A stretch of 64,000 nt of DNA from a virus: positions 45,205 to 109,204 of the IMG/VR virus record IMGVR_UViG_3300027754_005987; one strand, 5' to 3'. The notes beneath the pieces are model-generated. The model made no database searches, was not told where the DNA came from, and saw only the letters and a list, made by a program, of their open reading frames with translations. A program made the position numbers and the translations under genes. Shown one piece after another: positions 25,735 through 64,000 of the stretch (positions within the stretch are counted from its first letter, which is position 1; every line of letters begins with the position of its first letter).

Positions 25735-25765
25735 AATTTTTATGTGTTTTTTATTTTTTATTTAA

Positions 25766-31409: not shown

Positions 31410-31410
31410 A

Positions 31411-35665: not shown

Positions 35666-35673
35666 ATTTTTTT

Positions 35674-36360: not shown

Positions 36361-36418
36361 ATTAATTTTATATTTATTATAACTTATAATTTAATAAAAT
36401 AAGTTAAAAAGTAAACTA

Positions 36419-37180: not shown

Positions 37181-37185
37181 ATTAT

Positions 37186-38530: not shown

Positions 38531-38531
38531 A

Positions 38532-40504: not shown

Positions 40505-40521
40505 GTGTAAATAATTTTAAA

Positions 40522-40552
40522 CAAATATACTATTTTTTAATTTAAAAAACAA
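40522..40552 (-). promoter_or_regulatory. Bacteroidota-type promoter TTG-N20-TATATTTG
   Basis: caaatata at 40522-40529 and caa at 40550-40552, upstream of rfbH. Confidence 0.6.
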
Positions 40553-40559
40553 TAGTTAA

Positions 40560-42046: not shown

Positions 42047-42047
42047 A

Positions 42048-44266: not shown

Positions 44267-45450
44267 TATAGTGTTTCAATATATTGGTTAACAATGTTAT
44301 TAATATCTAATTTTTTTATCGCATCAATATCACCACTTAATTCAATAACTGACGATAATGGGTTTTCTTGAACACTAGTAAACAATCCATTTGTGAATTT
44401 GGTATTAACAATAGAAATACCATTGTATAGTTTATTCATATGTTCAATAATACCATCATCATATACATGGATGATATCAAAGTTATAATCTTTCACTTTA
44501 TAAAGCATGTTTGGTTGTGATGGAACATCACCATCTTTAGTTTTAAGAACCCATTTACCATCACCTAATGCAAATCCTGGAGGTTGCTGTATTGGCGCTA
44601 AATTAATACCGTTATTTTTAGCAATTGAACCTATCTTTCCATTTATGTTAGAACAAATAGTAACATCATGGTTTTCTTTTTTTAATTTTGATGCAATTTC
44701 TAACATTATATTACTTTTAGGTAAGGTATCATCAAAAGATAAACTAGTCATTAGTATTTTTAATTTTTCACCCTTTCTTAAGGTTTTTTTAATTTTTACT
44801 GGTAGGTTTTCTTTAAATGTTTCAGCGAAAATAATTCTATTTTTATCCCATGATTCATTTGTCATACCTATTGATTTATGGTTAACCCTAACAATTGTCG
44901 ACACACCTATTTTAACACCTTTTAAATAATTCTCAAAACAAAAAGTAACATCATAAAAATGAAAACCTTCTACTGATTCGTTAAAATTAGTTTTAAGTCT
45001 AGTTTTATCAACAGCAAAGAAAACACCATCAACAATCACAACTTCTTCTAATCCAAGACCTAAATCATCAGAATAAGCTGATAACCATGACTTACCTTCA
45101 TGTGTATGTTTTACTCTACCATACATTTTTCTTTTATCTTCCCACCATTGTCCGCTGCTAGCCATATATTTTGTACCAGCAACACCAATAACACCATATT
45201 CTGGATTTTTTTCAAACTGTTTTATCAATTTATTACCCCATTGTTTTGTTTCAATATTTAAATCATCATGACAAAACACAACGATGTTGTTTTTAGCCTG
45301 TTTTAACCCCTTATTATATGATTTTGTTAAGCTTTCACCATTATTGATAATCTCAATAACTTCAATATGTTTGTGAAGACCAGAAGACTTTATTAAGTGC
45401 TCTTTATGTTCTGGATTTGTTTTTCTAGTACAATATACAACTGTTATCAT
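44266..45450 (-). CDS. Glycosyltransferase (GT2-like) with an extra C-terminal GT-B-like N-domain
   Basis: SLTKSYNKG, VFCHDD, GVAG, DGVF and FHFYD motifs, followed by KILMTSL...HDVTI. Confidence 0.8.
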   Translation of the reverse strand: MITVVYCTRKTNPEHKEHLIKSSGLHKHIEVIEIINNGESLTKSYNKGLKQAKNNIVVFCHDDLNIETKQWGNKLIKQFEKNPEYGVIGVAGTKYMASSGQWWEDKRKMYGRVKHTHEGKSWLSAYSDDLGLGLEEVVIVDGVFFAVDKTRLKTNFNESVEGFHFYDVTFCFENYLKGVKIGVSTIVRVNHKSIGMTNESWDKNRIIFAETFKENLPVKIKKTLRKGEKLKILMTSLSFDDTLPKSNIMLEIASKLKKENHDVTICSNINGKIGSIAKNNGINLAPIQQPPGFALGDGKWVLKTKDGDVPSQPNMLYKVKDYNFDIIHVYDDGIIEHMNKLYNGISIVNTKFTNGLFTSVQENPLSSVIELSGDIDAIKKLDINNIVNQYIETL

Positions 45451-46757: not shown

Positions 46758-47397
46758 TGTTTTTCATAAAAGAATTAAATTTTTCTGCACCAACCATAGC
46801 ATCTAAGTTTAGAATACCTTTGATAGATACCTCTTTCACATAGGTTTCCAAGTCATCTTGTGTTGTCTCATAAAAAACAGAACTAGTCATTGGTCTTTCT
46901 TGTTTGTTTTTAGGTATGATGATACCTTGTTTAGCATCAAGCATTTTCTTTTGGTAGTTAAGTGCTTCAGTTGCGTTATCACGGTCTTTGTTTATAACAT
47001 ATGTTAACGTTGGGTTGTTTGGATTAAGATTTTCATTATGAATTTCAATAATCTCTGGCTCATATAACATTGGTGTTTTGTTATTGAAAAGCATTTCACG
47101 TCTGTTAGCCAACAAGTCTTTTGTTAAGTTTTCATGGTTTGTTTGTTCCAATGATGTTGTATACATAAGCTTTGTAACTTTTGCGTGATTGGCGAATCCT
47201 TGACTAAAAGCATCTTTTTCCCTTTTGATTTCATCCAATCTAGCTTTTTCTTCTTTACGAACTAAATTAGGTTTAGTAACCTTTCTATACCAAAGACTTG
47301 CTATAGGGTTTTTTACATACTTAAACCATACTGTACTAGCAAGTGATTTAATCTTGCTAGCAACTGATAGTTTATTTTTCTTTACTGTTTTTTTCAT
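46735..47397 (-). CDS. Hypothetical basic protein
   Basis: 220-aa ORF overlapping the upstream gene by 4 nt. Confidence 0.55.
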   Translation of the reverse strand: MKKTVKKNKLSVASKIKSLASTVWFKYVKNPIASLWYRKVTKPNLVRKEEKARLDEIKREKDAFSQGFANHAKVTKLMYTTSLEQTNHENLTKDLLANRREMLFNNKTPMLYEPEIIEIHNENLNPNNPTLTYVINKDRDNATEALNYQKKMLDAKQGIIIPKNKQERPMTSSVFYETTQDDLETYVKEVSIKGILNLDAMVGAEKFNSFMKNIESSKNK

Positions 47398-49808
47398 GTG
47401 TTTGTTGTTTCTATTAAAACTTCATTATTATTAACTTGGTTATCTTCAACTAATTTAATGTATAATGCTCTTCTGTTTTCTGTTACTTTATCCATTGAAT
47501 ACGTATCTTTAACAGTTGCAAAAAGATTATCTTGAAGGGTCTTAACCAAATCAGGGTTTGTAATTAATTTCTTGATAGCGCTATACCAATCTTTATGGTT
47601 TTTACTGCTTTCAACTAAAATACCATTAGCCTCTAAATCAAAACCACCACCAAATTTAATTGCGTTTTTAATGTCTATTTTATATGGACCAAAATCTTGA
47701 GCAATAATCGCTTTATGATGAAAACCAGCTTCAATAACTTTTAATTGACTTTTTACCTTGTTGAATATGTTTTCTTCGATAGGTGCCAATGAAATATCAA
47801 ATAGATTATAGTTAGAAGCATACGTTGAAATTGGTTTTGTCCAAACACGTCTATAAGATTCATTAGAAACATTAGGATATTCTTCTTGTCTAAATTTAAG
47901 TAAAAAATCTTTATATTCTGGACTAACAGATTTATAATCATCAGTAAATATCCTTTCATATTGATACCAAACGCTTTCCATTGGTTTGATAGCTCTTTGT
48001 GTTTGATTACCAGTTTTTTCATCAATCATAGTCATAGTACCTCTTAAGTCAAAACCACATAAAACAAATTGTACTTTATCAATTAAGTTATCACTTTTTA
48101 AACGACTAACAATACCATTTAGAATCTCTAAATCTTTTAAATGTGAATTACCAATCCACATAGCTTTACCGTTTCTTCTAACATAAATAATGTGATTTTT
48201 AACTTCAACACAATAAACATTACCCTTATAATGTCTATTATATTGGTCTTCTGTTTTTATTAGCGGTGTATTTTTATTATGTTTACTAATATTAGGGTGT
48301 TTAGTAAAATTAACAACTAAAGAATCATATTGATTATTAATGGCTCTACCTTTAATTTCAGAAGTTCGTTTACCTCTGTTTGTTATAGTAGCAGAAACAC
48401 CTATTTTTAACGCAATTTCTTGTAAATCATTTGCTAATGAAGGTGAGCAAGTAAATGCTCTAGTCCTAGTATATTTATTATTTTCAACATGTCCATCACC
48501 TTTAATAAACCAATCTAAAAATATAGTTAATTGTCTTGGTGATAAACCTAATACGTCTTTAGGTACAAATTTTTCATAAGCATCACCAAAGTTAGATAAA
48601 TACTCCCATAACTGTTTATCAAAAACCCTAATTTGGTGTTTATCTTTTGTATATTTTGGATTGAAACCCATTTTAATTAATAAATCATACATATATGATA
48701 AATAACCATTATCTTTTACTTGGGCAATACCTACTTGATGTAACTCCTTTGTTTTACTAACCCAACCTTCAGCCATCCAGAAACCAAAAAATTCTAACCA
48801 ATTATCCATATCAATAAATTTATCCGAACCATATTTTTCAGATAACCCATTATATCGTTTTTTTGAAATTAATTTGTCAACATAGCTTTCATTTTCTTCA
48901 TGTTCAGCATATTCATTTAACATAGGTAAAACAAAATATTTTTCTTCTTTACCAACCCAAATAGCATCTTTTTTAATATGGAAATTTTTACCATGTACTT
49001 TTTCAGATTGAATTAATTCTAAATTTAATTTTTTATGTGTTAATGATTTAGCAACTGAAGCATACATATTATGGTTTGGTGTAACTTCATATTCAACTAA
49101 ACCATTTTTAGCACAGTTTAATTCACCCTCAAATGGTTCACATATATAACCAGTTGGTTCATGATATTCTATCGCATTTGTTAATGGATTTAATGTCGCA
49201 ACAGTTTCAGTTTGATTTAACTTATCAAATCGTTTCCAACCTTCATTAGTCAAAATCTCAGTATCTGGTGTCATACAAGAACCACCTAGCCATCCAATTC
49301 TAACACGACCATTTGATGGTTCTAAGTTTGGTGTGAATTGTTTTTCTGTTGGGTCAATAGCGTTAGGTAAAACATATACGTTTTTATTATACTTTGAAAT
49401 TTCACTTGCAAATATATCAGTTGTTGTTGTAATATTTTCAGCAACTTTTAAATTTGCCAATATTTTCTCATCTAATTTAGCATTTTTAATCAAATGATAT
49501 GCTGGATGATGTGGTCCAGGTGCCCAATGGTCATCTAAATCCATTATGGAAATAATACCTAAATTTTTAAAATAATTAACAAGTGATTCCATTTGTTCAT
49601 ATTGACCAAGTGTTCTGTGATAATGTATAATATCATATTGTTTTAAAAATTCTACATTATTTAAATCTGGTTCGTAATCAACATCAACATGAAACTCATC
49701 TGGGTAATTATTTTCTAACGCTAAATGTGGGTTAGTTGAGCGATAATAACCAACACCTGTACGGTCTGATGGTACAACTAAAACTTTTATTTTTTTTCTT
49801 TTTTCCAT
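47394..49808 (-). CDS. GT-B-fold glycosyltransferase containing an intein
   Basis: GVGYYRS..P, DLDDHW, VLPNAID, RIGWLGGS|SHLKDL and DISLAPI...FNKVKSQLKVIEAG motifs. Confidence 0.85.
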   Translation of the reverse strand: MEKRKKIKVLVVPSDRTGVGYYRSTNPHLALENNYPDEFHVDVDYEPDLNNVEFLKQYDIIHYHRTLGQYEQMESLVNYFKNLGIISIMDLDDHWAPGPHHPAYHLIKNAKLDEKILANLKVAENITTTTDIFASEISKYNKNVYVLPNAIDPTEKQFTPNLEPSNGRVRIGWLGGSCMTPDTEILTNEGWKRFDKLNQTETVATLNPLTNAIEYHEPTGYICEPFEGELNCAKNGLVEYEVTPNHNMYASVAKSLTHKKLNLELIQSEKVHGKNFHIKKDAIWVGKEEKYFVLPMLNEYAEHEENESYVDKLISKKRYNGLSEKYGSDKFIDMDNWLEFFGFWMAEGWVSKTKELHQVGIAQVKDNGYLSYMYDLLIKMGFNPKYTKDKHQIRVFDKQLWEYLSNFGDAYEKFVPKDVLGLSPRQLTIFLDWFIKGDGHVENNKYTRTRAFTCSPSLANDLQEIALKIGVSATITNRGKRTSEIKGRAINNQYDSLVVNFTKHPNISKHNKNTPLIKTEDQYNRHYKGNVYCVEVKNHIIYVRRNGKAMWIGNSHLKDLEILNGIVSRLKSDNLIDKVQFVLCGFDLRGTMTMIDEKTGNQTQRAIKPMESVWYQYERIFTDDYKSVSPEYKDFLLKFRQEEYPNVSNESYRRVWTKPISTYASNYNLFDISLAPIEENIFNKVKSQLKVIEAGFHHKAIIAQDFGPYKIDIKNAIKFGGGFDLEANGILVESSKNHKDWYSAIKKLITNPDLVKTLQDNLFATVKDTYSMDKVTENRRALYIKLVEDNQVNNNEVLIETTNT
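48147..49277 (-). mobile_element. Intein (377 aa) with a LAGLIDADG homing endonuclease
   Basis: Starts CMTPDTEILTNEGW, block B VTPNHNM, FFGFWMAEG and FIKGDG motifs, ends VYCVEV..H...VRRNGKAMWIGN followed by Ser. Confidence 0.92.
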
Positions 49809-50551: not shown

Positions 50552-51004
50552 TTATTTTTTTATTTCTTTATTAGGTTTATATTGTGCTATTATACGTTTG
50601 AAGGTGTTAACAACCGTTTTTGGTAAAAAGTTACCTTTTTTATCACCATTTGGGTTATAATTATCAACTGGTTCATAAATAGTCATTTTTGTTGGATACC
50701 AACCTTCAATTCTATCTATTCTGAATATTTTAGTTGCTGCGTTAGTATTCCCTTTTTTAGATGCACCACTAATTTGTTGTGCCCTAATTGCATAATTACC
50801 GTTAAATAATTGACCATACACTGTTGGCAAAATATATCTTTTGCTTGGTGGCTGGTTTGGGAAATCCCTATATAATATATTAACGGCTTTTCTATTCATT
50901 ATTGCATATATTAAATCATCAGCAGAAACATCTTCAGTTATTAAACCTAGATGTTTCTGTGATTCTTCAAATATAACCTCTTCGAATAAATTGTAAAGCT
51001 TCAT
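50552..51004 (-). CDS. WYL-like domain protein with a capsid-targeting-like N-terminus
   Basis: MKLYNLFEEVIFEE leader; AIMNRKAVNILY...RYILP...AIRA...KIFRIDRI. Confidence 0.55.
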   Translation of the reverse strand: MKLYNLFEEVIFEESQKHLGLITEDVSADDLIYAIMNRKAVNILYRDFPNQPPSKRYILPTVYGQLFNGNYAIRAQQISGASKKGNTNAATKIFRIDRIEGWYPTKMTIYEPVDNYNPNGDKKGNFLPKTVVNTFKRIIAQYKPNKEIKK

Positions 51005-51015
51005 ATAAAAAAAAA

Positions 51016-51435
51016 TTAAGGTATTACAACTTGTCCTATGTTTTTAGAGGTATCTGGGTGTGTATAAAAATTTTTGGTATCTGCTGGATTTGTTATATTA
51101 ACACCATAACCAAAAGTAGTTAAATTGTATAAAATAGCTTTGTTTCTACCAATACCGTTGGTAGAACCTTTGATATCATAATCATCACCACCGATATAAT
51201 TGTTTCTAGCGGTATAACCATTATAAGTATTGCTTAAATCAAATGCATCATTAGTAGCTTTACCTCTATATGGTGTTGCAAGGTCTGCTTTAGCGTTTGT
51301 GTTTGTTTGGCCATATTCATTTGTTGTTTTGAATGATGTGCCATATAGTAAACTAGATTTGGGTAACAAGAAGTTTCTACTAGCAATTGCGATTATTTCT
51401 AGTGGTGATTGACCACCGTTGTAAGGAGTTGGCAT
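51016..51435 (-). CDS. Hypothetical protein
   Basis: 139-aa ORF. Confidence 0.55.
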   Translation of the reverse strand: MPTPYNGGQSPLEIIAIASRNFLLPKSSLLYGTSFKTTNEYGQTNTNAKADLATPYRGKATNDAFDLSNTYNGYTARNNYIGGDDYDIKGSTNGIGRNKAILYNLTTFGYGVNITNPADTKNFYTHPDTSKNIGQVVIP

Positions 51436-51438
51436 AAG

Positions 51439-51843
51439 TTATAATATTTGTTTTTTGTTATTGTTATTCATATATTCAATTAAATATTTGATAGAAGAAA
51501 TTTCTTCAGACAATGCTTCAGCATTTGTTAATATTCTACTTTTAACACCGCCTTTTTTATCAGCACTTTTAGTGACTTTAGGCGCTTCAACACTTGTTGG
51601 GTTAATTTCTTTTTGAAAGGTATTTCTATAATCAGTATCTTTTGTTATTTCTTTACCTTTATTTATTATGTTTCTAGCGTGTTGTAGTTTTTTCTTTATT
51701 TCTTCCAGTTCAATTTCACCTTGTTTGGTTATTGTCCCGTTTTTTAATTCTTGTTTTAATCTAGTCTCACGCATTTTTAATGCTTCACCGTCCAATACTT
51801 TATTGTCGTGGTTAAATTTTGTGTTATCTAAATTAGTTTTCAT
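51439..51843 (-). CDS. Hypothetical protein
   Basis: 134 aa; C-terminal LSEEISSIKYLI. Confidence 0.55.
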   Translation of the reverse strand: MKTNLDNTKFNHDNKVLDGEALKMRETRLKQELKNGTITKQGEIELEEIKKKLQHARNIINKGKEITKDTDYRNTFQKEINPTSVEAPKVTKSADKKGGVKSRILTNAEALSEEISSIKYLIEYMNNNNKKQIL

Positions 51844-51845
51844 TA

Positions 51846-52328
51846 TTAAATGTTTTTATTCTTTTTAGGATTATTTTTTTTACTAATAATCGCTTTGGAT
51901 AATTCTTCTAGTTGTGCATCGGTTAATTCAACATCATTAATAGTGTTAATCAATTTAGCAACTTTTGGATTGTAATTTTTTTCAGTTACATCTGAATCTT
52001 TGCTTTTTTTAACAAGGTCTTCAATTATTTCTTCAACAGTTTGTTTTTTAACAATATTACTTTCACCTAAGTTTGTAGTTGAACTACCACCAGCACGTCT
52101 ACCACCAAAACTATAAACAGCAAACCATGGAATATTTTGTCTATAACGACCAAATACTATATCCGTAGTTGTTGATTTTCCTTTTTTATAGTTAGAATCA
52201 TCATTATATGGTTTTTCAACTGGACCTGTTTCTATTTCACTATTATTGCTAATGGTTCTATCATTACCACCAGAAAAAATATCCCCACCAACCAATTCAG
52301 TTAAATCTTTCTTTTTAAATGTAGCCAT
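51846..52328 (-). CDS. Hypothetical protein
   Basis: 160 aa; ATATTTATA motif upstream. Confidence 0.55.
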   Translation of the reverse strand: MATFKKKDLTELVGGDIFSGGNDRTISNNSEIETGPVEKPYNDDSNYKKGKSTTTDIVFGRYRQNIPWFAVYSFGGRRAGGSSTTNLGESNIVKKQTVEEIIEDLVKKSKDSDVTEKNYNPKVAKLINTINDVELTDAQLEELSKAIISKKNNPKKNKNI

Positions 52329-52390: not shown

Positions 52391-55300
52391 ATGTCGTTTA
52401 GAACAAAATTAGATTTTTCAGACAATAGACAAGTAAAACAACACATAAAAACCAAAACTGTTTTATCTGGTGCAACATCATTTGGTGTGCCTTACGTTGA
52501 TTTGCCTTCTGGGCCAGATTTTAGCACATCATCAATTACGCAAACAATTACATCAATAACTAGCACTTTTTCTGGTAATAGTACAACAACAAATTATACT
52601 TGGTATGATTCTAGGATGTCATTGGCTAACAATGTGTTATCAGCAATTACCCCAACAACATCAGCGTATACTCAAAACACTGGTCAAGTTTATACTGGTA
52701 ATTCATACACAATAATTGATGACAATACAATTTATTCAACTTATAGTGGTGTATCTTTTGATATTAGCGCAACAACTTTTATTAGTTTGGGTGGTGGTAA
52801 TTATTCTGGTTCAGTTTATACAAACACATTAAGAATACTTTCATATAATTCATTAGATTTTACTGGTAGAACTATTTGGAATGATGTTTCTGGAATAACT
52901 AGAACAGATAGACTTATTGTTAGCAGAGGTGCACAAACTGGATATATTTTAGGAGCGACAGATTCTGAAGGTATGGTTGAATGGATACCTACTAGTGGGT
53001 TTGAATTTAGTGGTGGTAGTGGTAATTGTATTACTGATTTATATGTTACTAACGTATTTGGTTGTTCACCTATTAGAGTACATGATGATATCATTCTTAG
53101 CGGTACAACTAGTAAAAAATTAGGTATAAATACAACACCATCATATACTTTTGATATGTTAAGTCAGGATGGTACTAGTAAATTATTTTATGATGATACA
53201 ACTGATAGTCAAAGTCTTATATTAAGTGGTAAGACTAATGGTTTATATTACGTAGATGTTAGAGCTACAGATGTTGGTATTTTAAGACTAGGTGTTGTTG
53301 GTAAATCGTATAGTGGTAATACTACATTTGGTGTTACAGGTGATTCATACGTATATTCATCAGTATTATCAAATGGTTTAAATATAATTAGCTCACCAGG
53401 TGGGTTATCATCAACAACTAGTGATTATATAAGATTTTATGCTGGTAACACAGCTACATCACAACCTGATTTACATATACAAGGTAGCGGAGCAACAAGA
53501 GGTAATATTGGTATAGGGACTACAGACCCAAAAGATACATTACATATTAAAGGTAGTGCTAGTGTTTTAAATTTAGAAGGTAGTGACCACGTTTATATGA
53601 ATTTTTATCCTGATGGATATTCTGCTGGTAGAAAAGCATGGTTTGGGTTTGGCAATAGTACTGATGATAATATTAGTTTAACAAATCAAACAGTAACAGG
53701 TGGTACAGTATTTAAAACTAATGATATAACTAGAATGTTTATATCAGCGTCAGGTAATTCTGGTAATGTTGGTATAGGAACTATAGTACCTACTGAAAAA
53801 TTAGATGTTAATGGTAGGACGAAAACAACAACAATACAAGTTACATCTGGTGCGACTAATGGATATGTATTAATATCAGATAGTAATGGTGTTGGTAGAT
53901 GGGGGAAAGCTGCTTCGGATATTTTTACTACAGGTAGTACTAATAATAACGCGATTTATGATATTATAGGTTCACATACTTTAAGTGGTGTATCTGATTA
54001 TTCGATAATAGCTGGTGGTTATGGTAATACAATTACAGGTAGTACTTATTCTGGTATATTTGCTGGTAGTGGAAACACTATTAGTAGTACATCAAAATTA
54101 TCGGTAATTGCTGGTGGTAATTTAAATACGATATCAGGTCATACAAATGCTTTTATTGGTGGTGGACAAAATAATTTTATTGATTTTTGTAGTTCTAAAG
54201 GTAAAGGTAATACTAATGAAAGTATAATTGGTGGTAGTTTTAATGAGATTGATTCAGCAATAAACTCAAGTATTGTTGGAGGTGGGAATAATTTATTAAA
54301 TAATTCATCACATGGAGGGCAATCATCAACTATATTAGGTGGTAGTGGTAATACTATGACTAATGGTCATATTTCAACAATGATTGGTGGTAGTGGTAAT
54401 ACATTAGGTGATAGTGCTTGTGCATTATCTTATTCAACGATTATAGGTGGTTATGGGAATAATATATCATCAGTTAATACTGGTGGTTTTAACATGATTG
54501 CGAATTCAATAACATCTAGTATTGATGGTCAATATGCTCTTATATTAAATTCTAATATATCAAACATATTTGGTAATTCATATAATTCATCAATTATTGG
54601 GGGTAGTGGGAATACGATAACAAGTAGTGATTATGTGATTATTGATGGAGGTAAAAGTAATAATATTGATTCATCAGATTATTCAATAATTGGTGGTGGT
54701 TCTAGTAATATAATTATTGATAGTACATATTCAGGTTTATTTGCTGGTAGTGGTAACACAATAACAAATACATCATTTAATTCAGTAATAGCTGGTGGTA
54801 GTGGAAATACTGTTAATGGACATAACAACGCATTTATTGGCGGTGGTTCTGATAATACCATACATGAAGGTTGTCCTAGTACTGAATTACCAATTAACGA
54901 AGCGATTATTGGTGGTTCTAATAATATAATATCAGCTGCAACAAGTTCAGTTATTTTAGGTGGTTCCGAAAATAGTATTACAAAATATACTCGTTCAGTT
55001 ACCATTGGTGGTTATCGTAATTCATTTATTGATACAACTTATGATAACCTAATTTATTGTGATGATAATACTGAAGATAATATTATAACTACAGATTCAG
55101 TTATAGTTGGTGGTAGAAATAATACAGTTAGTAATAAAGTTTCTAATTCTGTTATATTAGGTGGTTCTGGAAACACTATTACTGGTAATGTTTCAAGTAC
55201 AGCTTCTTACGGTAATGCTATAATTGGTGGTAAAGCAAATGGAGTAGGTAGCAATATAAAACATAGTATAGTATTAGGTGGCTATAATATAACAGCTACA

Positions 55301-55999
55301 ACATCTGATATGGTTTATGTACCAGATTTAATAATTGATGGATTGATTAGCGTTACTAATTTACAAACAAATGCTAGTGGGCAATTAATAGATGGTGCTT
55401 CAGATATTAGACTTAAACAAAATATTAATCAATTACAGAATTCATTATCAATACTTAAAAATCTAAGAGGTGTTTCATTTGAATACACCCAAGAATCTAA
55501 TATGGGTGGTGGATTACGATATGGATTTATTGCTCAAGAAGTTCAAGAATTTATACCAGATATTGTTAGGTCTAGGGTTAAAGGTGATGGTATGTTATCA
55601 CTTAGCTATACTGAAATAATACCCTTATTGGTTGAAGCAGTTAAAGAATTATCATCTGGACAGACAACAAACAATACTTATTTAGAAACGCAGTCAATAC
55701 TTGCTGAAGATAACAATATTGATTTAAATCATAATGGTAGTGTTGAATCAGCAGTTGGTGGTGGGATTAGAGTTATTAATGCTATAGGAATAGATAATCA
55801 CGCTGAATTAATAACTGATACAGATGGTAATTTCGTTACAAATAATGATTTTAAACCTAATGCGTTAACTATTCCTTTATATACACCAACATCATCTAAC
55901 GATATAAATGGTAATGATGGTAACATAACAAGAGATGCTGACTATTTATATATTAAGTGCAATAATATTTGGAAAAGAACAAAACTGGAAGAATTTTAA
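52391..55999 (+). CDS. Tail fibre/spike with GGxxN beta-helix repeats and a peptidase S74 intramolecular chaperone
   Basis: GNIGIGTTDP..LH and GNVGIGT..P...LDV fibre motifs; many S.I.GGSGN.I repeats; SDIRLKQNI...GFIAQEV...LSY...LLVEAVKEL. Confidence 0.85.
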   Translation: MSFRTKLDFSDNRQVKQHIKTKTVLSGATSFGVPYVDLPSGPDFSTSSITQTITSITSTFSGNSTTTNYTWYDSRMSLANNVLSAITPTTSAYTQNTGQVYTGNSYTIIDDNTIYSTYSGVSFDISATTFISLGGGNYSGSVYTNTLRILSYNSLDFTGRTIWNDVSGITRTDRLIVSRGAQTGYILGATDSEGMVEWIPTSGFEFSGGSGNCITDLYVTNVFGCSPIRVHDDIILSGTTSKKLGINTTPSYTFDMLSQDGTSKLFYDDTTDSQSLILSGKTNGLYYVDVRATDVGILRLGVVGKSYSGNTTFGVTGDSYVYSSVLSNGLNIISSPGGLSSTTSDYIRFYAGNTATSQPDLHIQGSGATRGNIGIGTTDPKDTLHIKGSASVLNLEGSDHVYMNFYPDGYSAGRKAWFGFGNSTDDNISLTNQTVTGGTVFKTNDITRMFISASGNSGNVGIGTIVPTEKLDVNGRTKTTTIQVTSGATNGYVLISDSNGVGRWGKAASDIFTTGSTNNNAIYDIIGSHTLSGVSDYSIIAGGYGNTITGSTYSGIFAGSGNTISSTSKLSVIAGGNLNTISGHTNAFIGGGQNNFIDFCSSKGKGNTNESIIGGSFNEIDSAINSSIVGGGNNLLNNSSHGGQSSTILGGSGNTMTNGHISTMIGGSGNTLGDSACALSYSTIIGGYGNNISSVNTGGFNMIANSITSSIDGQYALILNSNISNIFGNSYNSSIIGGSGNTITSSDYVIIDGGKSNNIDSSDYSIIGGGSSNIIIDSTYSGLFAGSGNTITNTSFNSVIAGGSGNTVNGHNNAFIGGGSDNTIHEGCPSTELPINEAIIGGSNNIISAATSSVILGGSENSITKYTRSVTIGGYRNSFIDTTYDNLIYCDDNTEDNIITTDSVIVGGRNNTVSNKVSNSVILGGSGNTITGNVSSTASYGNAIIGGKANGVGSNIKHSIVLGGYNITATTSDMVYVPDLIIDGLISVTNLQTNASGQLIDGASDIRLKQNINQLQNSLSILKNLRGVSFEYTQESNMGGGLRYGFIAQEVQEFIPDIVRSRVKGDGMLSLSYTEIIPLLVEAVKELSSGQTTNNTYLETQSILAEDNNIDLNHNGSVESAVGGGIRVINAIGIDNHAELITDTDGNFVTNNDFKPNALTIPLYTPTSSNDINGNDGNITRDADYLYIKCNNIWKRTKLEEF

Positions 56000-58179
56000 T
56001 GGGAAACATACTAAATTTCAATTTTAATAAATTAGACCTTAAGTTATCAAATTCTGACTATTGGGATTTCTTTTTGGTAAGTGATGAATACAATACTTGT
56101 GGTTATACACCGCAATTTAGTGGGGATTGTTTTGTTGTTTGGTATGATTTCAATAATCCAGCAACTTTTGCCAATAGTCAAATGTCAGCGACATCAATTT
56201 ATAGTCTTGTTAGTTGGTCTAAAGCCGTTAATACTGGTTATACATTAGACGCATTTGGTATTACTGGTATTGATAATGGATTTTTGACTTTTAATAAAGA
56301 AAGTGGCGATACTAAAAATGAAGCTTTGCTAAGTGTTTTAACTGGAAGTACTTTAATAATACCATCTGGAGAAACTAGGTTAAGATTAAATAGAGTTACT
56401 GGAACCACTGGTAATTATATATACCCTATTGAAATATTAAATGATACAACTGGATATTATACACAATATTGTGGTGGTTTTCATCAAGGTTATTATAAAA
56501 TAGATGGAACTACATATGAAGCATTACCAACAAGAGTAAATCAAGCTTGGGCTGCTGAATTTTGGTTATTACCACAAGATTTTTGTACTGGACATACTGG
56601 AACTACATTAAATGATGATTTCCCAGATAATAAGGGTATTTTCTTTTATATGGGTACCCGTGCTGAGAATAAATTTTGGAATATTTTTAGTGGTGTTAGC
56701 ACTGGTTGTACTAGTGGTTGCACAATTCCATCTGGTTGTACTGAACCTCTTAATCCATGGTGTACAGTTACCAAAGAAAATGAAGTTTCAATAATCAATG
56801 ATGATGGGATTTTAATACCTTTAGACCCACCACAACTACAAATAGATTTGATAACAAATCCATTTTTAATTTATGGTAGAGCAAATAGTAAACCTTACCC
56901 TACAGTTAGCGGTAACCCAGAACCAAATGACGTATTTTTTTATGTTAATTCAGTTAGTTCAACTGATGATGAACCATGTACATGTAATAATTGTCATAAA
57001 TGTTATACAAAAGGTTTTGGTTTAGGTTCTAAAAAAGCTCACGACTATGATGGTAAGGGTTTATTTGTTGTTAAAAAAGATACTGAAATAAGTAACACAC
57101 AAAATCCTTTTTTAATTTATGGAAGAGCTAGCGGTAATGTTTCAGGTTGTAAATGTAATGCTTGTAGTGGGAGTGGTGATGGTTTAGGTAGTGAAACAGT
57201 GTGTTCTTTTACTGGTTTTACAAAAGATAAATTAGAATTAGATTATAATACAGATATTATAGATAACGCATTAGCTTTTAGAATAAAAGATGATGGAAGT
57301 ATTGGTTATAGATTATTAACTTATACTGGCACTTGTATTACAAGCGCTACTGGAAGTACTTATGTTAGTGGTGTGACCGTAGAAGAAGCGTATTCGCTTT
57401 CTGGTATGGTATCAGCAAATACATGGTCCTATATTGTTATTAGATTTGTAACAAATTATTTAGATGATTGCGAATTAGCTATTAAAAAACCTAGAAAGGG
57501 TAAATTAATGTTTTATGTGAACGCTAAATTAAAATTTGTGGTTAACGAATTTGATGAAATTGTAGCTAGGAGACTAAATGAATATTATTCAAAACAGATA
57601 GGTGTACCATTTAATATTAGTCTTGGTGGTGGTAGTCAGGGATTGTTAGAAAGTCAAACATTTGATGGTTTAGACATGGCTGATAGAGACTTACCAATTG
57701 AAAAGAATTTTGCTGGAACGTTTATAGGTGGAATATCACAATTTAAATTTAATATTTGTGATTTAAATTATAACGATATACAAAATACTTATATTTATGA
57801 GAAAGAAAGGTACAGTGGCGTGGTAATAATACCTAACAAACCAGCTCCAAGTCATATATATTATGGCAAGTTTAATGGAACAAGTATTACTTCAGCTGAG
57901 ACAATTAGTAATTTGACACTTAAATACACTGAAAGTGTTGTTAATACTTATGTTACAGTACCAGCGGTAAATGGTTATGGTTATGTGTTGATTCCATCTA
58001 CATTGACACAACCAAGTGACTTTAGAAACAGTCTTTACGGTTGTACAGGGTTTAATATACCTTATGTGGTGTTACAAGATATAATAATAGTGGATTCTAA
58101 CGGATTCTCAATAACATATAAAGTATATAGAACATTTAACACAACATTTGGTTCATTGAACATGTGGATGTGTGATTAA
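55999..58179 (+). CDS. Cys-rich virion structural protein, possibly LamG-like (start moved to ATG 55999)
   Basis: TAATG overlap with the upstream gene; W..IVIRF...LMFYVN...FNISLGGG...FIGGISQFK; two NPFLIYGRA repeats. Confidence 0.6.
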   Translation: MGNILNFNFNKLDLKLSNSDYWDFFLVSDEYNTCGYTPQFSGDCFVVWYDFNNPATFANSQMSATSIYSLVSWSKAVNTGYTLDAFGITGIDNGFLTFNKESGDTKNEALLSVLTGSTLIIPSGETRLRLNRVTGTTGNYIYPIEILNDTTGYYTQYCGGFHQGYYKIDGTTYEALPTRVNQAWAAEFWLLPQDFCTGHTGTTLNDDFPDNKGIFFYMGTRAENKFWNIFSGVSTGCTSGCTIPSGCTEPLNPWCTVTKENEVSIINDDGILIPLDPPQLQIDLITNPFLIYGRANSKPYPTVSGNPEPNDVFFYVNSVSSTDDEPCTCNNCHKCYTKGFGLGSKKAHDYDGKGLFVVKKDTEISNTQNPFLIYGRASGNVSGCKCNACSGSGDGLGSETVCSFTGFTKDKLELDYNTDIIDNALAFRIKDDGSIGYRLLTYTGTCITSATGSTYVSGVTVEEAYSLSGMVSANTWSYIVIRFVTNYLDDCELAIKKPRKGKLMFYVNAKLKFVVNEFDEIVARRLNEYYSKQIGVPFNISLGGGSQGLLESQTFDGLDMADRDLPIEKNFAGTFIGGISQFKFNICDLNYNDIQNTYIYEKERYSGVVIIPNKPAPSHIYYGKFNGTSITSAETISNLTLKYTESVVNTYVTVPAVNGYGYVLIPSTLTQPSDFRNSLYGCTGFNIPYVVLQDIIIVDSNGFSITYKVYRTFNTTFGSLNMWMCD

Positions 58180-58203
58180 AATATAAAAATTATAAAATAA
58201 ATT

Positions 58204-60870
58204 ATGGCAAATTTTAGCTTTTCTGGTGGTGTTGGTATAATTGGGTTTATATCACCTGTAGATACAAATGATACTTATGCGGTTATTGACCCGATTTATG
58301 GTATTGATGGTTTTAGAAACGTTGATACATTATCGGATTTACATTTAATATCGGCTGGAAGAAGAAGAGCTGGAATGGTTGTTGGTGTTGATAATGGTTC
58401 AAATTATTATAAATTAAAAGCTGAACCATGGTCTTATGATATATCAGATTGGGAAACGTTTGGAATATTCGCAACTGGTGCTACATTTATTGATAACATA
58501 TTAACAATCACAAATAATGATGGTACTCAAATATCTTCAATAATTGATGATTTTAGTGGACTTACGGTTAATGGTGTAATAACCGCAACAACCGTTTCTG
58601 CCACAACATTTTATGGTGATGGTAGTAAATTAAGTGGTATTGTAACTGATAACTTTTATACAACAGGATTTACATATAATAATAATAATACTTTTGCAAT
58701 TGAGCGTAATGGTAATTTACCAGTATTAATCGCTAGGATTGATACTATGACTGGGTTAACAGTTAATGGTGATTTAATAACAAATACTATATCAGCAACC
58801 ACTTATTATAATTTACCTTTAGATATAAGAGTTACAGGTGCAACATATTCAAATAACACATTTACATACACAAACAATGCTAATGGTAGTTTTAATGTGT
58901 TATTTAATACTGTTACAGGTTTAACAGTTAATGGTAAGTTAACAGTTACTGGTAATACAATACTTAATTCAACAAGTGCAACAACTTTAAATTTAAGTAA
59001 TTTACCTATTCAGAATAATTCAGCCACAGATATTCTAGCTAGAAACATATTAACAGGTGAAGTTGAATTTATTCCTGTTAGCGCTATAACACCCGACACA
59101 AATACATTCATAACTGGTACATCTTTTTCATCATTAACTAACATACTAACATTAAAAAGAAATGATAATGTTAATGTTACACAAAATATTAATAGTGAGT
59201 TTATTAATCAAGGTGTTTTCTATGTATCTAAACCAATTACAACATCAGGTTTATCAGCAACAATAACTGGATTAACACTTAATGGTATTGTATCAACTCA
59301 TACTGGTTACACACAACAATTATCAGTGGCAACTATGGGTTCTAAAGATAAACCATATCCATGTCCATGGTCAGCAAGAAATGCTGCATTAGATTTAATT
59401 GCTTCATCTGGTATAACATCAGCATTAATTATTATTGATAATGGTGATTTTACAGTAGGTTCTCCAACACCATCACAAAATGGTAATACAACAGGTAGTG
59501 CACCTAATAGTGTAGTTGTTGCTGATGTGTGTATTAGTAATAGTTATAATACTAACATTGCTTCATTATTACAAAATAAATTAACATATAGAACAAACCC
59601 TAATAGTTCATCTATAACTTATATAAATTCAGCTTATAATATATATTTTGCATATCATAGTGATAGCGTTAATGATGCTACATTTGAATGTAATATGTAT
59701 GGTTTAAATGTTTATCAAGTATATGGTCAAATAAATGGTTGGTTAGCAACATTTATGTTATTAGATAACGCTAGGTCTAAATGTACTTTAGATTTTAATA
59801 AATTATATTTACAACAAGCATATAATTTTAACATAAAATCATATGAAAGTCTTAATGTAAACATTAAAGAATGTAAATCAGCCGAAACAACATTTTTAGA
59901 ATTAAATAATAATAGAGATATAAGTGCTTTAAGCGCTACAACATCAGTATTAAATTTTTATATTGAAAACTTTTATTATGGTTATGGTAAGATACCATAT
60001 CCTAGTGACCCTACAGATTATTGGACAGGTGCACTTAACATTAATAGACAATTCGCATTAAGAAAAAAAATAATAAATGTTGAATATAAAAATATTGATA
60101 CAAATATTAATCCTGGTGGGTTATTTTATTTGGGTGCTGGTGGTGCAAGTGGTAATTTCATGAATACAACTATAAACTATAAAATTGGAAGTTTAATTGA
60201 AACAGAAAAAGATTTATATGTTGGCTCTTATTTAACTTATTCAACACTTTTATCAATTTTTGGTAGTCAAAATACAGTGTATTATGATAACTCATTTAAT
60301 TTTGAAGTTGGAAATGCTGTAACTGAAACAGCTTTATTTGGTAGTTATTCAGATTTAGGCAATATTGGTAGTGGAAATACTATATCATTTAAATGTGGAA
60401 AACATGTTAAGGTACCTAAAGTTACTTCGCAGTTTAGACTTAAAGAAAATGTGAATGCATCATTTGTTAGCGCTTCAAATTCTGGTGGAGTACCTACTAA
60501 TGTTGTAATAGACGGTACGTTTATTAATAGAGAAGCTGAAGCATTGGTAAGTGCGTATAACTACACTTATCAACATAGTAAAGTAATTGTTAAAGGTATA
60601 TATAAAACATATGGTACAGCTGTTCCAGCTATAACATTAAATAATATAAGAGATAAATACGTATCAATACAAGACGCTATTGTTATAAATGATGGTACTG
60701 TTGATTCAATTAAAAATGGTGTTTCGGTAAGTCCATTAATTGGGTCAAAACAACAAGCTTTTAGGAATATTTATTTTAAAAATGTAAGAACTAATTCAAC
60801 AATTGATTCATCAATTAATGAAGTTGGTGAAAATGTTATAATAAATCCTGACATAACTAACTATTTATAA
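58204..60870 (+). CDS. Tail fibre/receptor-binding-like protein
   Basis: T/S/G/N-rich; repeated TGLTVNG and SATT units in the N-half; beta-helix-like C-half. Confidence 0.65.
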   Translation: MANFSFSGGVGIIGFISPVDTNDTYAVIDPIYGIDGFRNVDTLSDLHLISAGRRRAGMVVGVDNGSNYYKLKAEPWSYDISDWETFGIFATGATFIDNILTITNNDGTQISSIIDDFSGLTVNGVITATTVSATTFYGDGSKLSGIVTDNFYTTGFTYNNNNTFAIERNGNLPVLIARIDTMTGLTVNGDLITNTISATTYYNLPLDIRVTGATYSNNTFTYTNNANGSFNVLFNTVTGLTVNGKLTVTGNTILNSTSATTLNLSNLPIQNNSATDILARNILTGEVEFIPVSAITPDTNTFITGTSFSSLTNILTLKRNDNVNVTQNINSEFINQGVFYVSKPITTSGLSATITGLTLNGIVSTHTGYTQQLSVATMGSKDKPYPCPWSARNAALDLIASSGITSALIIIDNGDFTVGSPTPSQNGNTTGSAPNSVVVADVCISNSYNTNIASLLQNKLTYRTNPNSSSITYINSAYNIYFAYHSDSVNDATFECNMYGLNVYQVYGQINGWLATFMLLDNARSKCTLDFNKLYLQQAYNFNIKSYESLNVNIKECKSAETTFLELNNNRDISALSATTSVLNFYIENFYYGYGKIPYPSDPTDYWTGALNINRQFALRKKIINVEYKNIDTNINPGGLFYLGAGGASGNFMNTTINYKIGSLIETEKDLYVGSYLTYSTLLSIFGSQNTVYYDNSFNFEVGNAVTETALFGSYSDLGNIGSGNTISFKCGKHVKVPKVTSQFRLKENVNASFVSASNSGGVPTNVVIDGTFINREAEALVSAYNYTYQHSKVIVKGIYKTYGTAVPAITLNNIRDKYVSIQDAIVINDGTVDSIKNGVSVSPLIGSKQQAFRNIYFKNVRTNSTIDSSINEVGENVIINPDITNYL

Positions 60871-60872
60871 TT

Positions 60873-61127
60873 ATGAAAGTAATATACGATAATAATGGTA
60901 TTGAAATAGCAAAAGATTTGTTAGATTCTATTATAGCAAAAACAAATGATACTTGTAAATATGTATATGTATACGATTCTTATTTGGAAGATGATATCTT
61001 AATTAAGAGACCTAATATTGATTGTAATACATTATATGAAACAGAAATGGTTTTAATTGATGATTCTATTTATTTAGAGTTAGAAAAATTAATTAATAAT
61101 AATGCACCAAATAATAATGAAATATGA
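60873..61127 (+). CDS. Small hypothetical protein
   Basis: 84-aa ORF in the fibre operon. Confidence 0.5.
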   Translation: MKVIYDNNGIEIAKDLLDSIIAKTNDTCKYVYVYDSYLEDDILIKRPNIDCNTLYETEMVLIDDSIYLELEKLINNNAPNNNEI

Positions 61128-61942
61128 GTGTTAGAAGTATAACAGGCGGTACTACAAGTATAAAATATACACAAATAACTGATACATTAGTAGATATAAC
61201 TGGTGTTACTAATAGTACTTATTTTTATAATAAAGCTGATAGTTTATCTTATTTCAAAGATAATGGTGGTAATATATTTCACACATTTACAGGTAGTTCA
61301 ACTTCTAATATTTCAACAAGTGGTTCAATATCAGCCACAACTTATCTTAATTTACCAATTGATGTCACAGTAACTGGTGCAACATATTCAAACAATACAT
61401 TCACTTATACGAATAATACAGGTGGTACATTTAATGTGTTATTTAATACACTTACAGGTTTAACTGTTAATGGTTCAATATCAGCCACAACAATATCTGG
61501 TGGTACATTTTATGGTAATGGTAGTAATTTAACTGGTATTATCCCACCATTGTCACAAGGTCAAATCTTTATTGGTGATAATACTAATAGTGCAGCTGCT
61601 AGAAACGTAATTGGTGATATTAATATTAATTATACTGGTAATACAACAATACAACCAAATGTTGTTACCTATTCTAAGATACAAAATGTCTCACAAGCAG
61701 CTGTATTAGGTAGCACATCAACTACTGGTGGTACTGTTGAAGAGATTGTGATGATAGAAGCGTATATAAACGCTAGTGGTACAACAGCTACATTATTAAG
61801 TACAACTGGTAATTGGGATATAAATGGTGTTTATATTGGTACAACAATAACTGGAACAACACAAGGTCAATCACATTATAATAGTGATTATTGGTTTACA
61901 GCTATTGATGATAATTCATGGATTAGAATGATAAGAGGATAA
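61124..61942 (+). CDS. Fibre-like structural protein
   Basis: Shares a ~49-aa module with the 58204 protein; FYGNGSNLTGI motif. Confidence 0.6.
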   Translation: MSVRSITGGTTSIKYTQITDTLVDITGVTNSTYFYNKADSLSYFKDNGGNIFHTFTGSSTSNISTSGSISATTYLNLPIDVTVTGATYSNNTFTYTNNTGGTFNVLFNTLTGLTVNGSISATTISGGTFYGNGSNLTGIIPPLSQGQIFIGDNTNSAAARNVIGDININYTGNTTIQPNVVTYSKIQNVSQAAVLGSTSTTGGTVEEIVMIEAYINASGTTATLLSTTGNWDINGVYIGTTITGTTQGQSHYNSDYWFTAIDDNSWIRMIRG

Positions 61943-61944
61943 AT

Positions 61945-62184
61945 ATGTTAAGCTTTAACGGTAAAATATTAAAAGTAACTAGAGATGGATTTGAGAAAAG
62001 ACATGATTTTGTATCGTCTGGTTCAACATCGTTCTCATATTGTGGTGTTGCACCACTTAATTCTAGTGAATCTGATTCAGTTTGGTATATAACAAGAGTC
62101 CAAATAGCTCAAGATGGTACAGTTGATAATAAAACAGCATCAAATGTGGCTTGGACAAATAGATTAACAACAACATATTCATAA
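61945..62184 (+). CDS. Small structural/fibre-associated protein
   Basis: YCGVAP...ESDSVWYITR...VAWTNR....Y motif. Confidence 0.55.
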   Translation: MLSFNGKILKVTRDGFEKRHDFVSSGSTSFSYCGVAPLNSSESDSVWYITRVQIAQDGTVDNKTASNVAWTNRLTTTYS

Positions 62185-62194
62185 TTAAAAATAT

Positions 62195-64000
62195 ATGGCA
62201 GTTAGATATGCAGTAGCAAGTGGAAATTGGAGTACGGGTAGTACATGGAATGGTGGTACTTTACCAACATCTAGTGATGATGTATTTTCAAATAACTTTA
62301 ATGTTACAATAGACCAAGATATCACAGTATTAAGCATCTCCACAGCCGCTTCAACACCTGCTGTTGCTGGTGGCGCATTTAGTGCAACAACAAGTAGAAC
62401 TATAAATGCTAATATTAATGGAGGAACGACAAATTGTTTAACTACAAATAATTCTTCCCCAATAACTATCACTATTAATGGTAATGTTACTGGTAACTTA
62501 ACAGGAACTAATAATTATGCTTTGGTTCATAATGGAACAGGAACTGTTACTGTATCAGGAACATGTAGTTTACCAACTAGTGGAGGTGCCCCAATATATA
62601 ATAGTTCAACTGGAATTATTAATATAATAGGTAATATTACAACTGGAAATAATAGTGGATTAGGTAATAAATGTGTTACAAACGCATCTACTGGTACCAT
62701 TAGTATTAGTGGAACTGTTAATGGAGGTGCTGGTACGTCTAATATTGGTGTTTTAAATTCATCTACTGGAACTATTAATGTAATTGGGAATGTACTTGGC
62801 GGTGCTGGTTCATTAGGTCATGGAATCCATAATAATGGAGCTGGAAACGTTAACGTAACTGGTAATATAACTGGTGGTACTGTTGGTTCTGCTTATGGTA
62901 TTCAAAATCAAATAAATGGTACTGTAATTATAAATGGAAATGTAACTGGCGGTATCGGTGGTGTATGTAGGGGTGTGGTAAATCAATTAAACGGAACTAT
63001 TACTGTAACTGGAATTGTTACTGGTGGGGCTGGTGATGTAGGATTACTTAATATCGCTACTGGTACAATAACAATAACTGGTACAACTGTTTCTGGTCTA
63101 AATTCTGCTGTAAGTAATGGTAGTACTGGTCCAATAACGATTAACGGAAATCAAATAGCTTCTGGAAATACTGGCGTTTACGCTATTTCAAACGGTTCAG
63201 CTGGTGTACTTACTATAAATGGTGATATTTTAGGTGCTTTAGCTACATCACCGTCATTAGCTTATGTAGTTAATAATGCTTCAACAGGTATTGTTAATAT
63301 AAATGGTTCGGTAATACAAAGAAGTATTGGACCATCTGGAAGTGTTGGTATTGTTACCAATTCATCAACTGGCACAATAAATGTAAGTGGTAATGTTGGT
63401 GGCGGTTCAATAGGAAATAGTATTGCAATAAATAACGCATCAACAGGTACAATAAATGTAATTGGAAGTATAAGCGGTGGAACAAATGCAACAACTACAC
63501 CAGCAATATATTCAACAACAGCTGGTGTTATAAATGTAAGTGGTGAAACTGCATCTGGTTTATATCCAGCATTATATTCAACAAGTACAACAGCAATAAA
63601 TAGATTAAAAGGTAATATTAAATCATTTAATGGTTTATTACCATTTATTGCTTGGAAGATAAATTGTGACCCATTATCAGCACAAACAATTACATTACAA
63701 GATACAAATAATACAGATAGAATATTTGGTACATCAAATGTATCTAATGGAGCACCATTACCAGCAAATGTTAGAAGTGGTATTGTTTATGGTTCAATAA
63801 ATGAATTTACTGGTACGACTATAATGGCAACACCAGATAATGTAAGAAAAGGTGTATTAACAGATAATACTATAGGGACTGGACAATTAACAGCTGAAGA
63901 TTTCTTAAATGCAATTTCAACTGGTACTGACCCATTATCAATAAGATTACAAAATGTGTCAACAGTGCAATCCACTGGTGACCAAATATCAAATTATTAA
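62195..64000 (+). CDS. G/T/N/S-rich beta-helix repeat virion protein
   Basis: ASGNWS..STWNGG..P...DDV start; many N.STGTI.V.G.V.GG repeats; P.PANVR.G..YG tail; TAA at 63998-64000. Confidence 0.65.
   Translation: MAVRYAVASGNWSTGSTWNGGTLPTSSDDVFSNNFNVTIDQDITVLSISTAASTPAVAGGAFSATTSRTINANINGGTTNCLTTNNSSPITITINGNVTGNLTGTNNYALVHNGTGTVTVSGTCSLPTSGGAPIYNSSTGIINIIGNITTGNNSGLGNKCVTNASTGTISISGTVNGGAGTSNIGVLNSSTGTINVIGNVLGGAGSLGHGIHNNGAGNVNVTGNITGGTVGSAYGIQNQINGTVIINGNVTGGIGGVCRGVVNQLNGTITVTGIVTGGAGDVGLLNIATGTITITGTTVSGLNSAVSNGSTGPITINGNQIASGNTGVYAISNGSAGVLTINGDILGALATSPSLAYVVNNASTGIVNINGSVIQRSIGPSGSVGIVTNSSTGTINVSGNVGGGSIGNSIAINNASTGTINVIGSISGGTNATTTPAIYSTTAGVINVSGETASGLYPALYSTSTTAINRLKGNIKSFNGLLPFIAWKINCDPLSAQTITLQDTNNTDRIFGTSNVSNGAPLPANVRSGIVYGSINEFTGTTIMATPDNVRKGVLTDNTIGTGQLTAEDFLNAISTGTDPLSIRLQNVSTVQSTGDQISNY

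Follow-up and report, generated by a model that had tools for sequence, protein, structure and literature searches.

We analysed a 64,000-nucleotide stretch of viral DNA (the window), the last 64 kb of the 109,204-bp contig IMGVR_UViG_3300027754_005987, and found that four of its distal tail proteins, here called A to D (Table 1), carry the tetrapeptide [S/T]-G-x-T far in excess of expectation. The signal is real and is more specific than a first-pass annotation of this DNA had stated. Neither composition nor repeats nor a particular fold explains it, and its distribution follows that of a single glycosyltransferase (GT) linked to the fibre genes, a predicted enzyme of the GT-B fold encoded at 47394–49808 and called GT-B below. 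On this evidence we tentatively propose that [S/T]-G-x-T and GT-B are a candidate sequon–enzyme pair for O-glycosylation of distal tail proteins.

The motif was counted in a loose form, [ST][GA]x[TS], and in a strict form, [ST]-G-x-T (S-A-x-T is also enriched), against 2,000 composition shuffles and also against shuffles within blocks of 20, 40 or 80 amino acids. For the loose form, protein A has 33 copies against 12.1 expected (z = 6.3; 20 copies are strict), B has 17 against 2.8 (z = 8.7), C has 21 against 5.1 (z = 7.4) and D has 13 against 3.7 (z = 5.3), and block shuffling left the enrichment unchanged. Every tetrapeptide listed in the first-pass annotation is present in the gene to which it was assigned, and the claim that the motif saturates surface proteins was borne out for A–D (z between 5.3 and 8.7), with a weak excess in the protein encoded at 19050–20456 on the minus strand (5 against 1.1, z = 3.9). 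The motif had also been called rare in the terminase, portal and enzymes; indeed, in these and in the GTs the loose form is at or below expectation. Among about 90 other open reading frames (ORFs) of the 109-kb contig there was no enrichment and none reached z = 3.1, and the small ORFs at 50552–52328 remained below z = 2.6.

With A–D combined, the strict motif occurs 54 times against 8.5 expected. By subtype, TGxT (28 against 4.4), SGxT (26 against 4.1) and SAxT (14 against 1.7) were the top three in an unbiased scan of gapped tripeptides, and no enrichment was seen in these proteins for [ST]GxS, NGxT, DGxT, VGxT, GGxT or N-x-T. Ser or Thr precedes G-x-T in 54 of 69 cases (78%), where 21 would be expected from the counts around Gly. 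Because the motif serines are drawn from both codon families (TCN 10, AGY 16), selection appears to act at the protein level and not on a DNA word; a DNA-level motif was rejected on this basis, with just a mild NNT-GGN codon-context effect. The first-pass annotation had also set the motif apart from the D-(S/T)-(A/I/L/V/M/T) sequon of Bacteroidota, and the distinction is sound, with Gly or Ala after the S/T and mostly V, I, L, N or F, not Asp, at position −1.

Repeats and shared modules do contribute to the counts. About ten copies in A stem from a single 'GGSGNTI' solenoid unit, C and D have a 69-residue module in common (65% identity), collagen-like (G-T/S-S)n runs in relatives and in Mel-JY01 give hundreds of trivial matches, and the loose motif of gut megaphages is partly 'SA[ER]T' in coiled-coil repeats. 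It is nevertheless very improbable that internal repeats in A, C/D paralogy and S/T/G-rich composition account for the excess by inflating the counts. After clustering of similar flanks, 57 of 70 instances were left as independent contexts and each protein was still 3.5–10-fold over expectation (A 19 against 5.5, B 15 against 1.5, C 18 against 2.8, D 12 against 2.3), local-block shuffles yielded the same z-scores, B is non-repetitive, and protein E is richer in Ser, Thr and Gly yet has no excess. Repeats or composition as the sole source were rejected, as the excess persists after collapsing repeats and after local shuffling. The description of the motif-bearing proteins as unrelated, and of the motif as converging across folds, therefore stands in part: the modules common to C and D and the repeat of A speak against it, whereas B is a separate lectin-like jelly roll and the motif recurs in the loops of jelly rolls, the turns of a solenoid and the modules of fibre proteins with an excess that outlasts collapsing. 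Collagen-like proteins were left out of all comparisons, and relatives were compared with the strict motif. Fibres of the collagen-like kind are encoded at 204879–211991 on the minus strand of a close relative, the complete genome G007 (2,370 residues), and at 2–3052 of the Microcystis phage Mel-JY01; in both they are similar to the G-x-T repeats of BclA, which are glycosylated on Thr. In gut/rumen-type megaphage fibres (L192:12834–15191 and L194:15460–20667), coiled-coil 'I-SA[ER]T-[DE]' repeats in a helical context inflate the loose motif and are unrelated to Gly turns.

The motif is not a general property of phage fibres. T4 gp34–37 had z-scores below 2, whole-genome scans of T4, the Flavobacterium phage immuto and RM378 revealed no motif-rich fibres, and twelve tail proteins of phi92 showed no enrichment, with a probability of S/T given GxT of 0.25; a general fibre property was rejected because these four phages lack the signal. 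The motif-rich fibres of Mel-JY01 are due solely to collagen-like repeats. Among close homologs of B, B and its neighbours are motif-rich at 57 of 57 IMG/VR loci (strict ratio 2.7–10.9), and 80 IMG/VR loci of a more distant group split into motif-free (ratio at most 1.7) and motif-rich sets with equal S+T content. The probability of S/T given GxT is 0.78 in A–D, 0.64 in the window clade, 0.52 in the distant motif-rich set, 0.20 in T4 and 0.08 in the motif-free clade, where it falls below the 14% background. This motif-free group consists of megaphages that form a sister clade and have the same B fold without the motif. Genome-wide, enriched ORFs number 11, 4 and 6 in the motif-rich G058, G059 and G007, and 0, 1 and 0 in motif-free genomes. 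In large tail-region proteins of the clade without GT-B (the L176–L242 group, for example G040, G046 and G050), [ST]GxT occurs 22 times where the counts around Gly predict 36, and this low count may reflect avoidance rather than mere absence.

We compared the distributions of GT-B and the motif over 82 records. GT-B is present in 48 searched records, of which 46 have a motif ratio of at least 2.4 (median 5.0), and in 14 of 14 complete motif-rich genomes. None of the 14 records from the motif-free clade has it, and for three of these, which are complete, the absence was re-checked with a profile; it was also not found in T4, immuto, RM378, Mel-JY01, S-SCSM1, G015, G019 or G024, which lack the motif signal too. 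Phages without the relevant GT, that of the 47394 family, are thus also without enrichment, as expected under the first-pass proposal. When the 310 ORFs of G007 were profiled phylogenetically against six complete genomes, three motif-rich and three motif-free, 52 genes were common to all six and 4 were restricted to the motif-rich genomes; GT-B was the sole full-length match among these 4, with the other three being partial. G015, G019 and G024 have just the C-terminal domain of D in common with the window, and their single 'enriched' ORF is a leucine-rich-repeat protein (G015:83453–85201, 582 residues, with NNQLTSFDGTGLSSLT units, among the structural genes of a T4-like phage without GT-B). 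In the LR756501 megaphage, no fibre genes surround GT-B, and this genome is hence uninformative.

Four GTs of the window had originally been proposed to co-occur with the motif, and only the one at 47394 tracks it. The pair at 24928 and 25766 is found in 31 of the 33 records examined from related jumbo- and megaphages (33–77% identity for 25766) and in every complete genome, motif-free ones included, and was rejected as motif-linked because it is core everywhere. The 381-residue protein at 25766 is without a family match. The PF13712 enzyme at 44266 is patchy, being found solely in motif-rich lineages but missing from four complete motif-rich genomes, and was set aside as a partial match; the motif-rich G052, G053 and G064 carry PF13712, PF13704 and GT-B. 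Counts of PF00535 (GT2) and PF13704 showed no association with the motif, as both occur in motif-rich and motif-free genomes alike, and no genome tested had PF00534, PF13641, PF13692 or PF01501. The GT9-like PF01075 is absent from the contig (32% complete), G010, G053 and G040 and present in G007 alone. No initiating phosphoglycosyl transferase (PF02397, PF00953) was found in the contig or four complete relatives, so a lipid-linked export route does not appear to be phage-encoded, in keeping with a target in the cytoplasm.

The GT-B gene consists of an N-extein (49278–49808), an intein (approximately 48147–49277) and a C-extein (47397–48146). The intein is a LAGLIDADG element of 377 residues that splits a conserved motif between GWLGGS and SH. 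The exteins are 60–64% identical to the intein-less, 416-residue orthologue of G007, which matches phrog_7162 'glycosyltransferase' (E = 7e-40), and the ESM Atlas model of the orthologue (predicted template-modelling score, pTM, 0.89) neighbours RfaG/PF00534 clusters at a TM score of 0.88. Against Pfam the exteins gave sub-threshold matches (GT4 N-terminal, E = 0.11; GT1_4 C-terminal, E = 0.017), and the PDB profile match was weak. Together, these profile and model matches place the predicted product among GT-B fold glycosyltransferases (GT4/GT1-like). Homologs form more than 7,700 clusters in public metagenomes, the best 120 of them 61–96% identical, at least 598 IMG/VR contigs carry GT-B (one intein-less orthologue is at L171:10984–12234), and the Atlas neighbours include a cluster of 787-residue intein-bearing versions. 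In most genomes the GT-B gene lies 3–6 kb from B and the fibre genes.

The surface mapping called for in the first-pass annotation gave the anticipated outcome for B. In its AlphaFold2 (AF2) model (mean predicted local distance difference test score, pLDDT, 79.7; pTM 0.72), 17 of 17 sites lie in loops or at loop–strand junctions. Homologs at least 37% identical to the N-terminal domain of B mostly have 7–16 sites in this domain, and those at most 33% identical have 0–4. The turn glycines of the B family are invariant in all groups, with flanks that read S/T-G-x-T or, in the motif-free clade, N/D/K-G-x-N/E; at a site near B135, S/T-G-x-T is present in 100% of GT-B lineages and 0% of the clade without GT-B. 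Because the motif-free homologs build the same jelly roll, the fold does not require the motif. The S/T of lineages with GT-B aligns with N/D/K/E in the clade without it, which is the pattern of an exchange between ST-turns and Asx-turns. The loop position and the swap of S/T for N/D fit an exposed acceptor and turn capping equally.

In a well-supported tree of B homologs, all motif-free records group in a single clade (100/99) and the motif state changes once, whereas PF13712 at 44266, the only GT mapped on this tree, changes state twice. We infer that GT-B was lost on the same branch as the motif change, because it is absent from 14 of 14 motif-free records and present in all complete motif-rich genomes; T4-like outgroups add at most a second concordant event. 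If motif and enzyme do form a pair, the system would possibly extend across a very large lineage of jumbo- and megaphages that infect Bacteroidota in aquatic and gut habitats, with a conserved GT-B gene targeted by inteins and endonucleases, and the sister clade might have lost the enzyme and then converted its sites to N/D-G, a joint history that we offer equally tentatively.

Several observations weigh against a sequon–enzyme pair. No more than one or two evolutionary events underlie the shared distribution of motif and GT-B, and an independent-pairs test on the B tree was without power (2 pairs, sign test p = 1). Shared descent could mimic the association, as could co-loss by linkage, since the GT-B gene is inside the fibre cluster. 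There are also discordant records: G060 has an intact GT-B yet 0 ORFs over the enrichment threshold, L193 and L236 have a low motif ratio, G017 (59% complete) is motif-rich with GT-B not found, and phi92 has a 24%-identical GT-B homolog and no motif enrichment. Within the contig, E has no significant excess (11 against 8.8 expected) though it is rich in Ser, Thr and Gly, and the capsid protein at 14784–16622 is not enriched (6 loose copies against 3.2 expected, and 0 strict copies). Without exception the motif falls on a turn glycine, a beta-strand often begins at its last Thr, and its positions within the repeat unit are constant in the D family; such behaviour would be expected if the motif were structural. 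The substrate of GT-B could also be a different one, and a glycan on the motif residue or on virion proteins of such phages was not found in the literature. The proposal of a sequon for a phage O-glycosyltransferase thus keeps its support from enrichment, loop sites and GT-B co-distribution, with the qualifications that the last reflects 1–2 events only and that a turn-glycine explanation fits too.

That explanation, which we rank just below the sequon–enzyme pair and consider nearly as likely because the motif is on turn glycines, is of a structural habit: an ST-turn before Gly, with a beta-branched Thr after it at the start of the next strand, would be used throughout the beta-rich distal tail proteins of the super-lineage, with the derived clade using an Asx-turn (N/D-G) instead and the match with GT-B reflecting shared descent or linkage. 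Consistent with this, each conserved site is on an invariant or near-invariant Gly and the motif-free clade substitutes N/D, which also cap turns; at 8 of 17 sites in the B model, the strand begins with the last Thr or right beside it; in the conserved modules of the C/D family, the motif recurs at set positions; the trait changes a single time on the tree; and G060 has GT-B with little motif. A habit of this kind accounts less well for the construction of the same jelly roll without the motif, or for a coupling between positions 1 and 4 (54 against 21 expected) that is far above their marginal preferences. Ser at position 4 and N/D at position 1 would both serve a turn and neither is enriched here; the signal is limited to distal tail proteins, with other beta-rich virion proteins lacking it; and the sole conserved full-length gene lost alongside the motif is a glycosyltransferase adjoining the fibre genes.

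It is unlikely that the motif serves another function, whether as a mark for another modification or partner (phosphorylation, or a chaperone or assembly factor) or, at the same low probability, by providing hydroxyl-rich uncharged loops for binding host polysaccharide or by adding stability through avoidance of N-G. Such roles would suit motifs in the loops of lectin-like domains and hydroxyl residues that stand where the motif-free clade has charged or amide residues. Avoidance of N-G would in addition agree with N-G frequencies of 0.85–0.91 of expectation in the window clade versus 1.66 in the motif-free clade, but in distant motif-rich phages N-G and D-G are at 1.5–1.6 times expectation, so that avoidance is not general; avoidance of deamidation-prone N-G was accordingly judged a weak candidate. 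These functions also leave the need for Thr at position 4 unexplained, and no kinase or other candidate enzyme has the distribution of GT-B (4 of 310 ORFs, three of them partial).

If the sequon–enzyme pair is correct, the GT-B protein would be a soluble enzyme that matures by intein splicing and, late in infection, would add the first sugar to the Ser or Thr preceding the turn glycine, with the Thr three residues on serving as a second recognition determinant. The GT-A, GT11, GT17 and sugar-nucleotide enzymes of the glycan-synthesis island at 29.8–45.5 kb may then extend the glycan, and the outcome would be a sugar coat on those parts of the virion that touch host and environment. We infer all three of the central elements of this scheme, namely that GT-B acts on these proteins, which residue it would modify and which sugar it would use.

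Mycobacteriophages are known to have glycosylated virions, and bacteria are known to have soluble GTs that modify loops of beta-rich surface proteins. Work by Freeman and colleagues, published in 2023 in Cell Host Microbe and cited in PMC12619734, reportedly showed by mass spectrometry that phage-encoded glycosyltransferases O-glycosylate mycobacteriophage virions. There, as proposed here, phage GTs are suggested or shown to decorate the structural proteins of the phage itself in the cytoplasm, and a glycan coat covers exposed surfaces. The mycobacteriophage targets are the C-terminal tails of capsid and tail-tube subunits, whereas here the capsid is not enriched and the putative acceptor motifs lie at turns inside fibres and receptor-binding proteins, paired with a candidate GT-B of another family. 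Bacterial autotransporter heptosyltransferases (BAHTs; TibC/AAH) are soluble, cytoplasmic and GT9-like, and hyper-glycosylate Ser/Thr in TibA, AIDA-I and Ag43. The likeness lies in acceptors on the short loops that link beta-strands, in a surface protein that is repetitive and rich in beta-structure, and in recognition of a structural motif rather than a long sequence; the acceptor proteins and motif differ, and GT9-like PF01075 is absent from the contig. General O-glycosylation in Bacteroidota uses the D-(S/T)-(A/I/L/V/M/T) sequon in the periplasm, on exported proteins and with a lipid-linked glycan. It resembles the present case in that its sequon is only three or four residues long and S/T is the acceptor, and differs in that here Gly follows the S/T, no Asp precedes it and virions assemble in the cytoplasm. 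In BclA of Bacillus anthracis, a fibre-like surface protein, Thr is O-glycosylated in collagen-like G-x-T repeats inside the mother cell. Its T-G-P-T fits [ST]-G-x-T and relatives of the window carry long (G-T/S-S)n collagen-like fibres, but A–D have no collagen-like run, their motif stands alone at turns, and no relationship between the enzymes is apparent. To our knowledge, there is no description of a sequence-defined motif on receptor-binding proteins of phages that is linked to a particular GT-B, and a literature search for one was likewise empty. Among 'moraphages' and large aquatic T4-like phages, glycan islands labelled 'LPS/cell-wall', predicted Bacteroidota hosts and several core GT families have been described (PMC12619734). 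These are also aquatic jumbo phages with core GTs of unassigned target; PMC12619734 links no GT to a sequence motif in virion proteins.

The contig has an estimated completeness of 32% (CheckV) and is classed in IMG/VR as a provirus. Its head genes are T4-like, with the portal at 8582, and by capsid its closest isolate is immuto (38% identity). Two complete relatives with terminal repeats, of 288 and 360 kb, have capsid proteins that are 74–77% identical, so the contig appears to be a piece of a jumbo phage. A protein identical to D is encoded on a 242,507-bp contig in public data; a much longer assembly of the same or a near-identical phage is therefore public. The host phylum of this phage lineage is probably Bacteroidota, because Bacteroidota are the predicted hosts of a related lineage (PMC12619734) and the nearest isolate infects Flavobacterium.

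Table 1. Features of the window that bear on the motif and on candidate enzymes (positions count from the first nucleotide of the window)
Feature	Position	Strand	Basis of assignment
Protein A, tail fibre, 1,202 residues	52391–55999	+	PF13884, E = 5.7e-15; phrog_5668 tail fibre
Protein B, probable receptor-binding protein, 726 residues	55999–58179	+	AF2 model, Foldseek, homolog clusters
Protein C, fibre protein, 888 residues	58204–60870	+	Module composition, motif counts
Protein D, short fibre protein, 272 residues	61124–61942	+	Modules common with C, homolog family
Protein E, S/T/G-rich beta-helix, cut by contig end	62195–64000	+	Repeat pattern
468-residue protein with weak motif excess	19050–20456	−	Faint CBM96 match only
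Predicted GT-B glycosyltransferase with LAGLIDADG intein	47394–49808	−	Extein identity, phrog_7162, Atlas structure neighbours
Glyco_tranf_2_5 (PF13712) GT-A enzyme	44266–45450	−	Pfam
Conserved pair: GT2 (24928–25734) and 381-residue protein (25766–26911)	24928–26911	−	Pfam (GT2), conservation
Glycan-synthesis island	29815–45450	−	GT and sugar-enzyme genes

The distal tail genes occupy the plus strand from 52391 to the contig end. Protein A has a C-terminal Peptidase_S74 intramolecular chaperone (PF13884 at residues 1004–1059), and its beta-solenoid region, at about residues 520–970, consists of about 10 'GGSGNTI' repeats. The start of B is most likely the ATG at 55999 rather than 55969. Foldseek matched the B model to lectin-like (ConA/LamG-like) jelly rolls, which makes B a probable receptor-binding protein of such domains, and its family comprises 691 representative homolog clusters. 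Between the jelly-roll domains of B are Cys-rich inserts ('CTCNNCHKCY' and 'GCKCNACSG'), modelled with low confidence, that may form a metal or disulfide cluster, and B also has a duplicated 'NPFLIYGRA' element. The N-terminal 400 residues of C are made of 'TGLTVNG..(S/T)ATT' and 'VTGATYSNNTFTY' modules. D ends in a conserved 'NWDING...IRG' domain and belongs to a family of more than 478 members with a median motif z of 7 and the motif at fixed places in conserved modules; its AF2 monomer model is of low confidence (pLDDT 63). E contains about 12 'NSSTGTINV.GNVxGG' repeats. Neither tblastn searches of isolated phages with B, C and D nor sequence searches of the PDB with A and D yielded anything useful. 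The island sits on the minus strand between the head genes and the fibre genes and encodes a GT17-like protein, an FkbM methyltransferase, two GT11 enzymes, Glf, DUF3431 and DUF5672 proteins, several GT2 enzymes, RmlD-like proteins and DegT. In phi92 (NC_023693), four adjacent GT genes (gp163–166, 102200–105376) lie among replication genes, and one of them is annotated with a polypeptide-GalNAc-transferase-like fold.

Our analysis narrows the idea of virion glycosylation in these phages to one enzyme (the 47394 family), one motif and a likely acceptor, the S/T before Gly, with the N/D-G clade as a natural negative control. If the motif is structural only, two interchangeable turn grammars separate sister phage clades. 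If the sequon–enzyme pair is true, phages would for the first time have a virion glycosylation system defined by a sequon: abundant uncultured jumbo phages would coat their host-recognition proteins with glycans at predictable positions, with consequences for host range, for receptor binding, for the stability of particles and for evasion of recognition by host or animal, and the unexplained glycan islands of large aquatic phages would gain a target.

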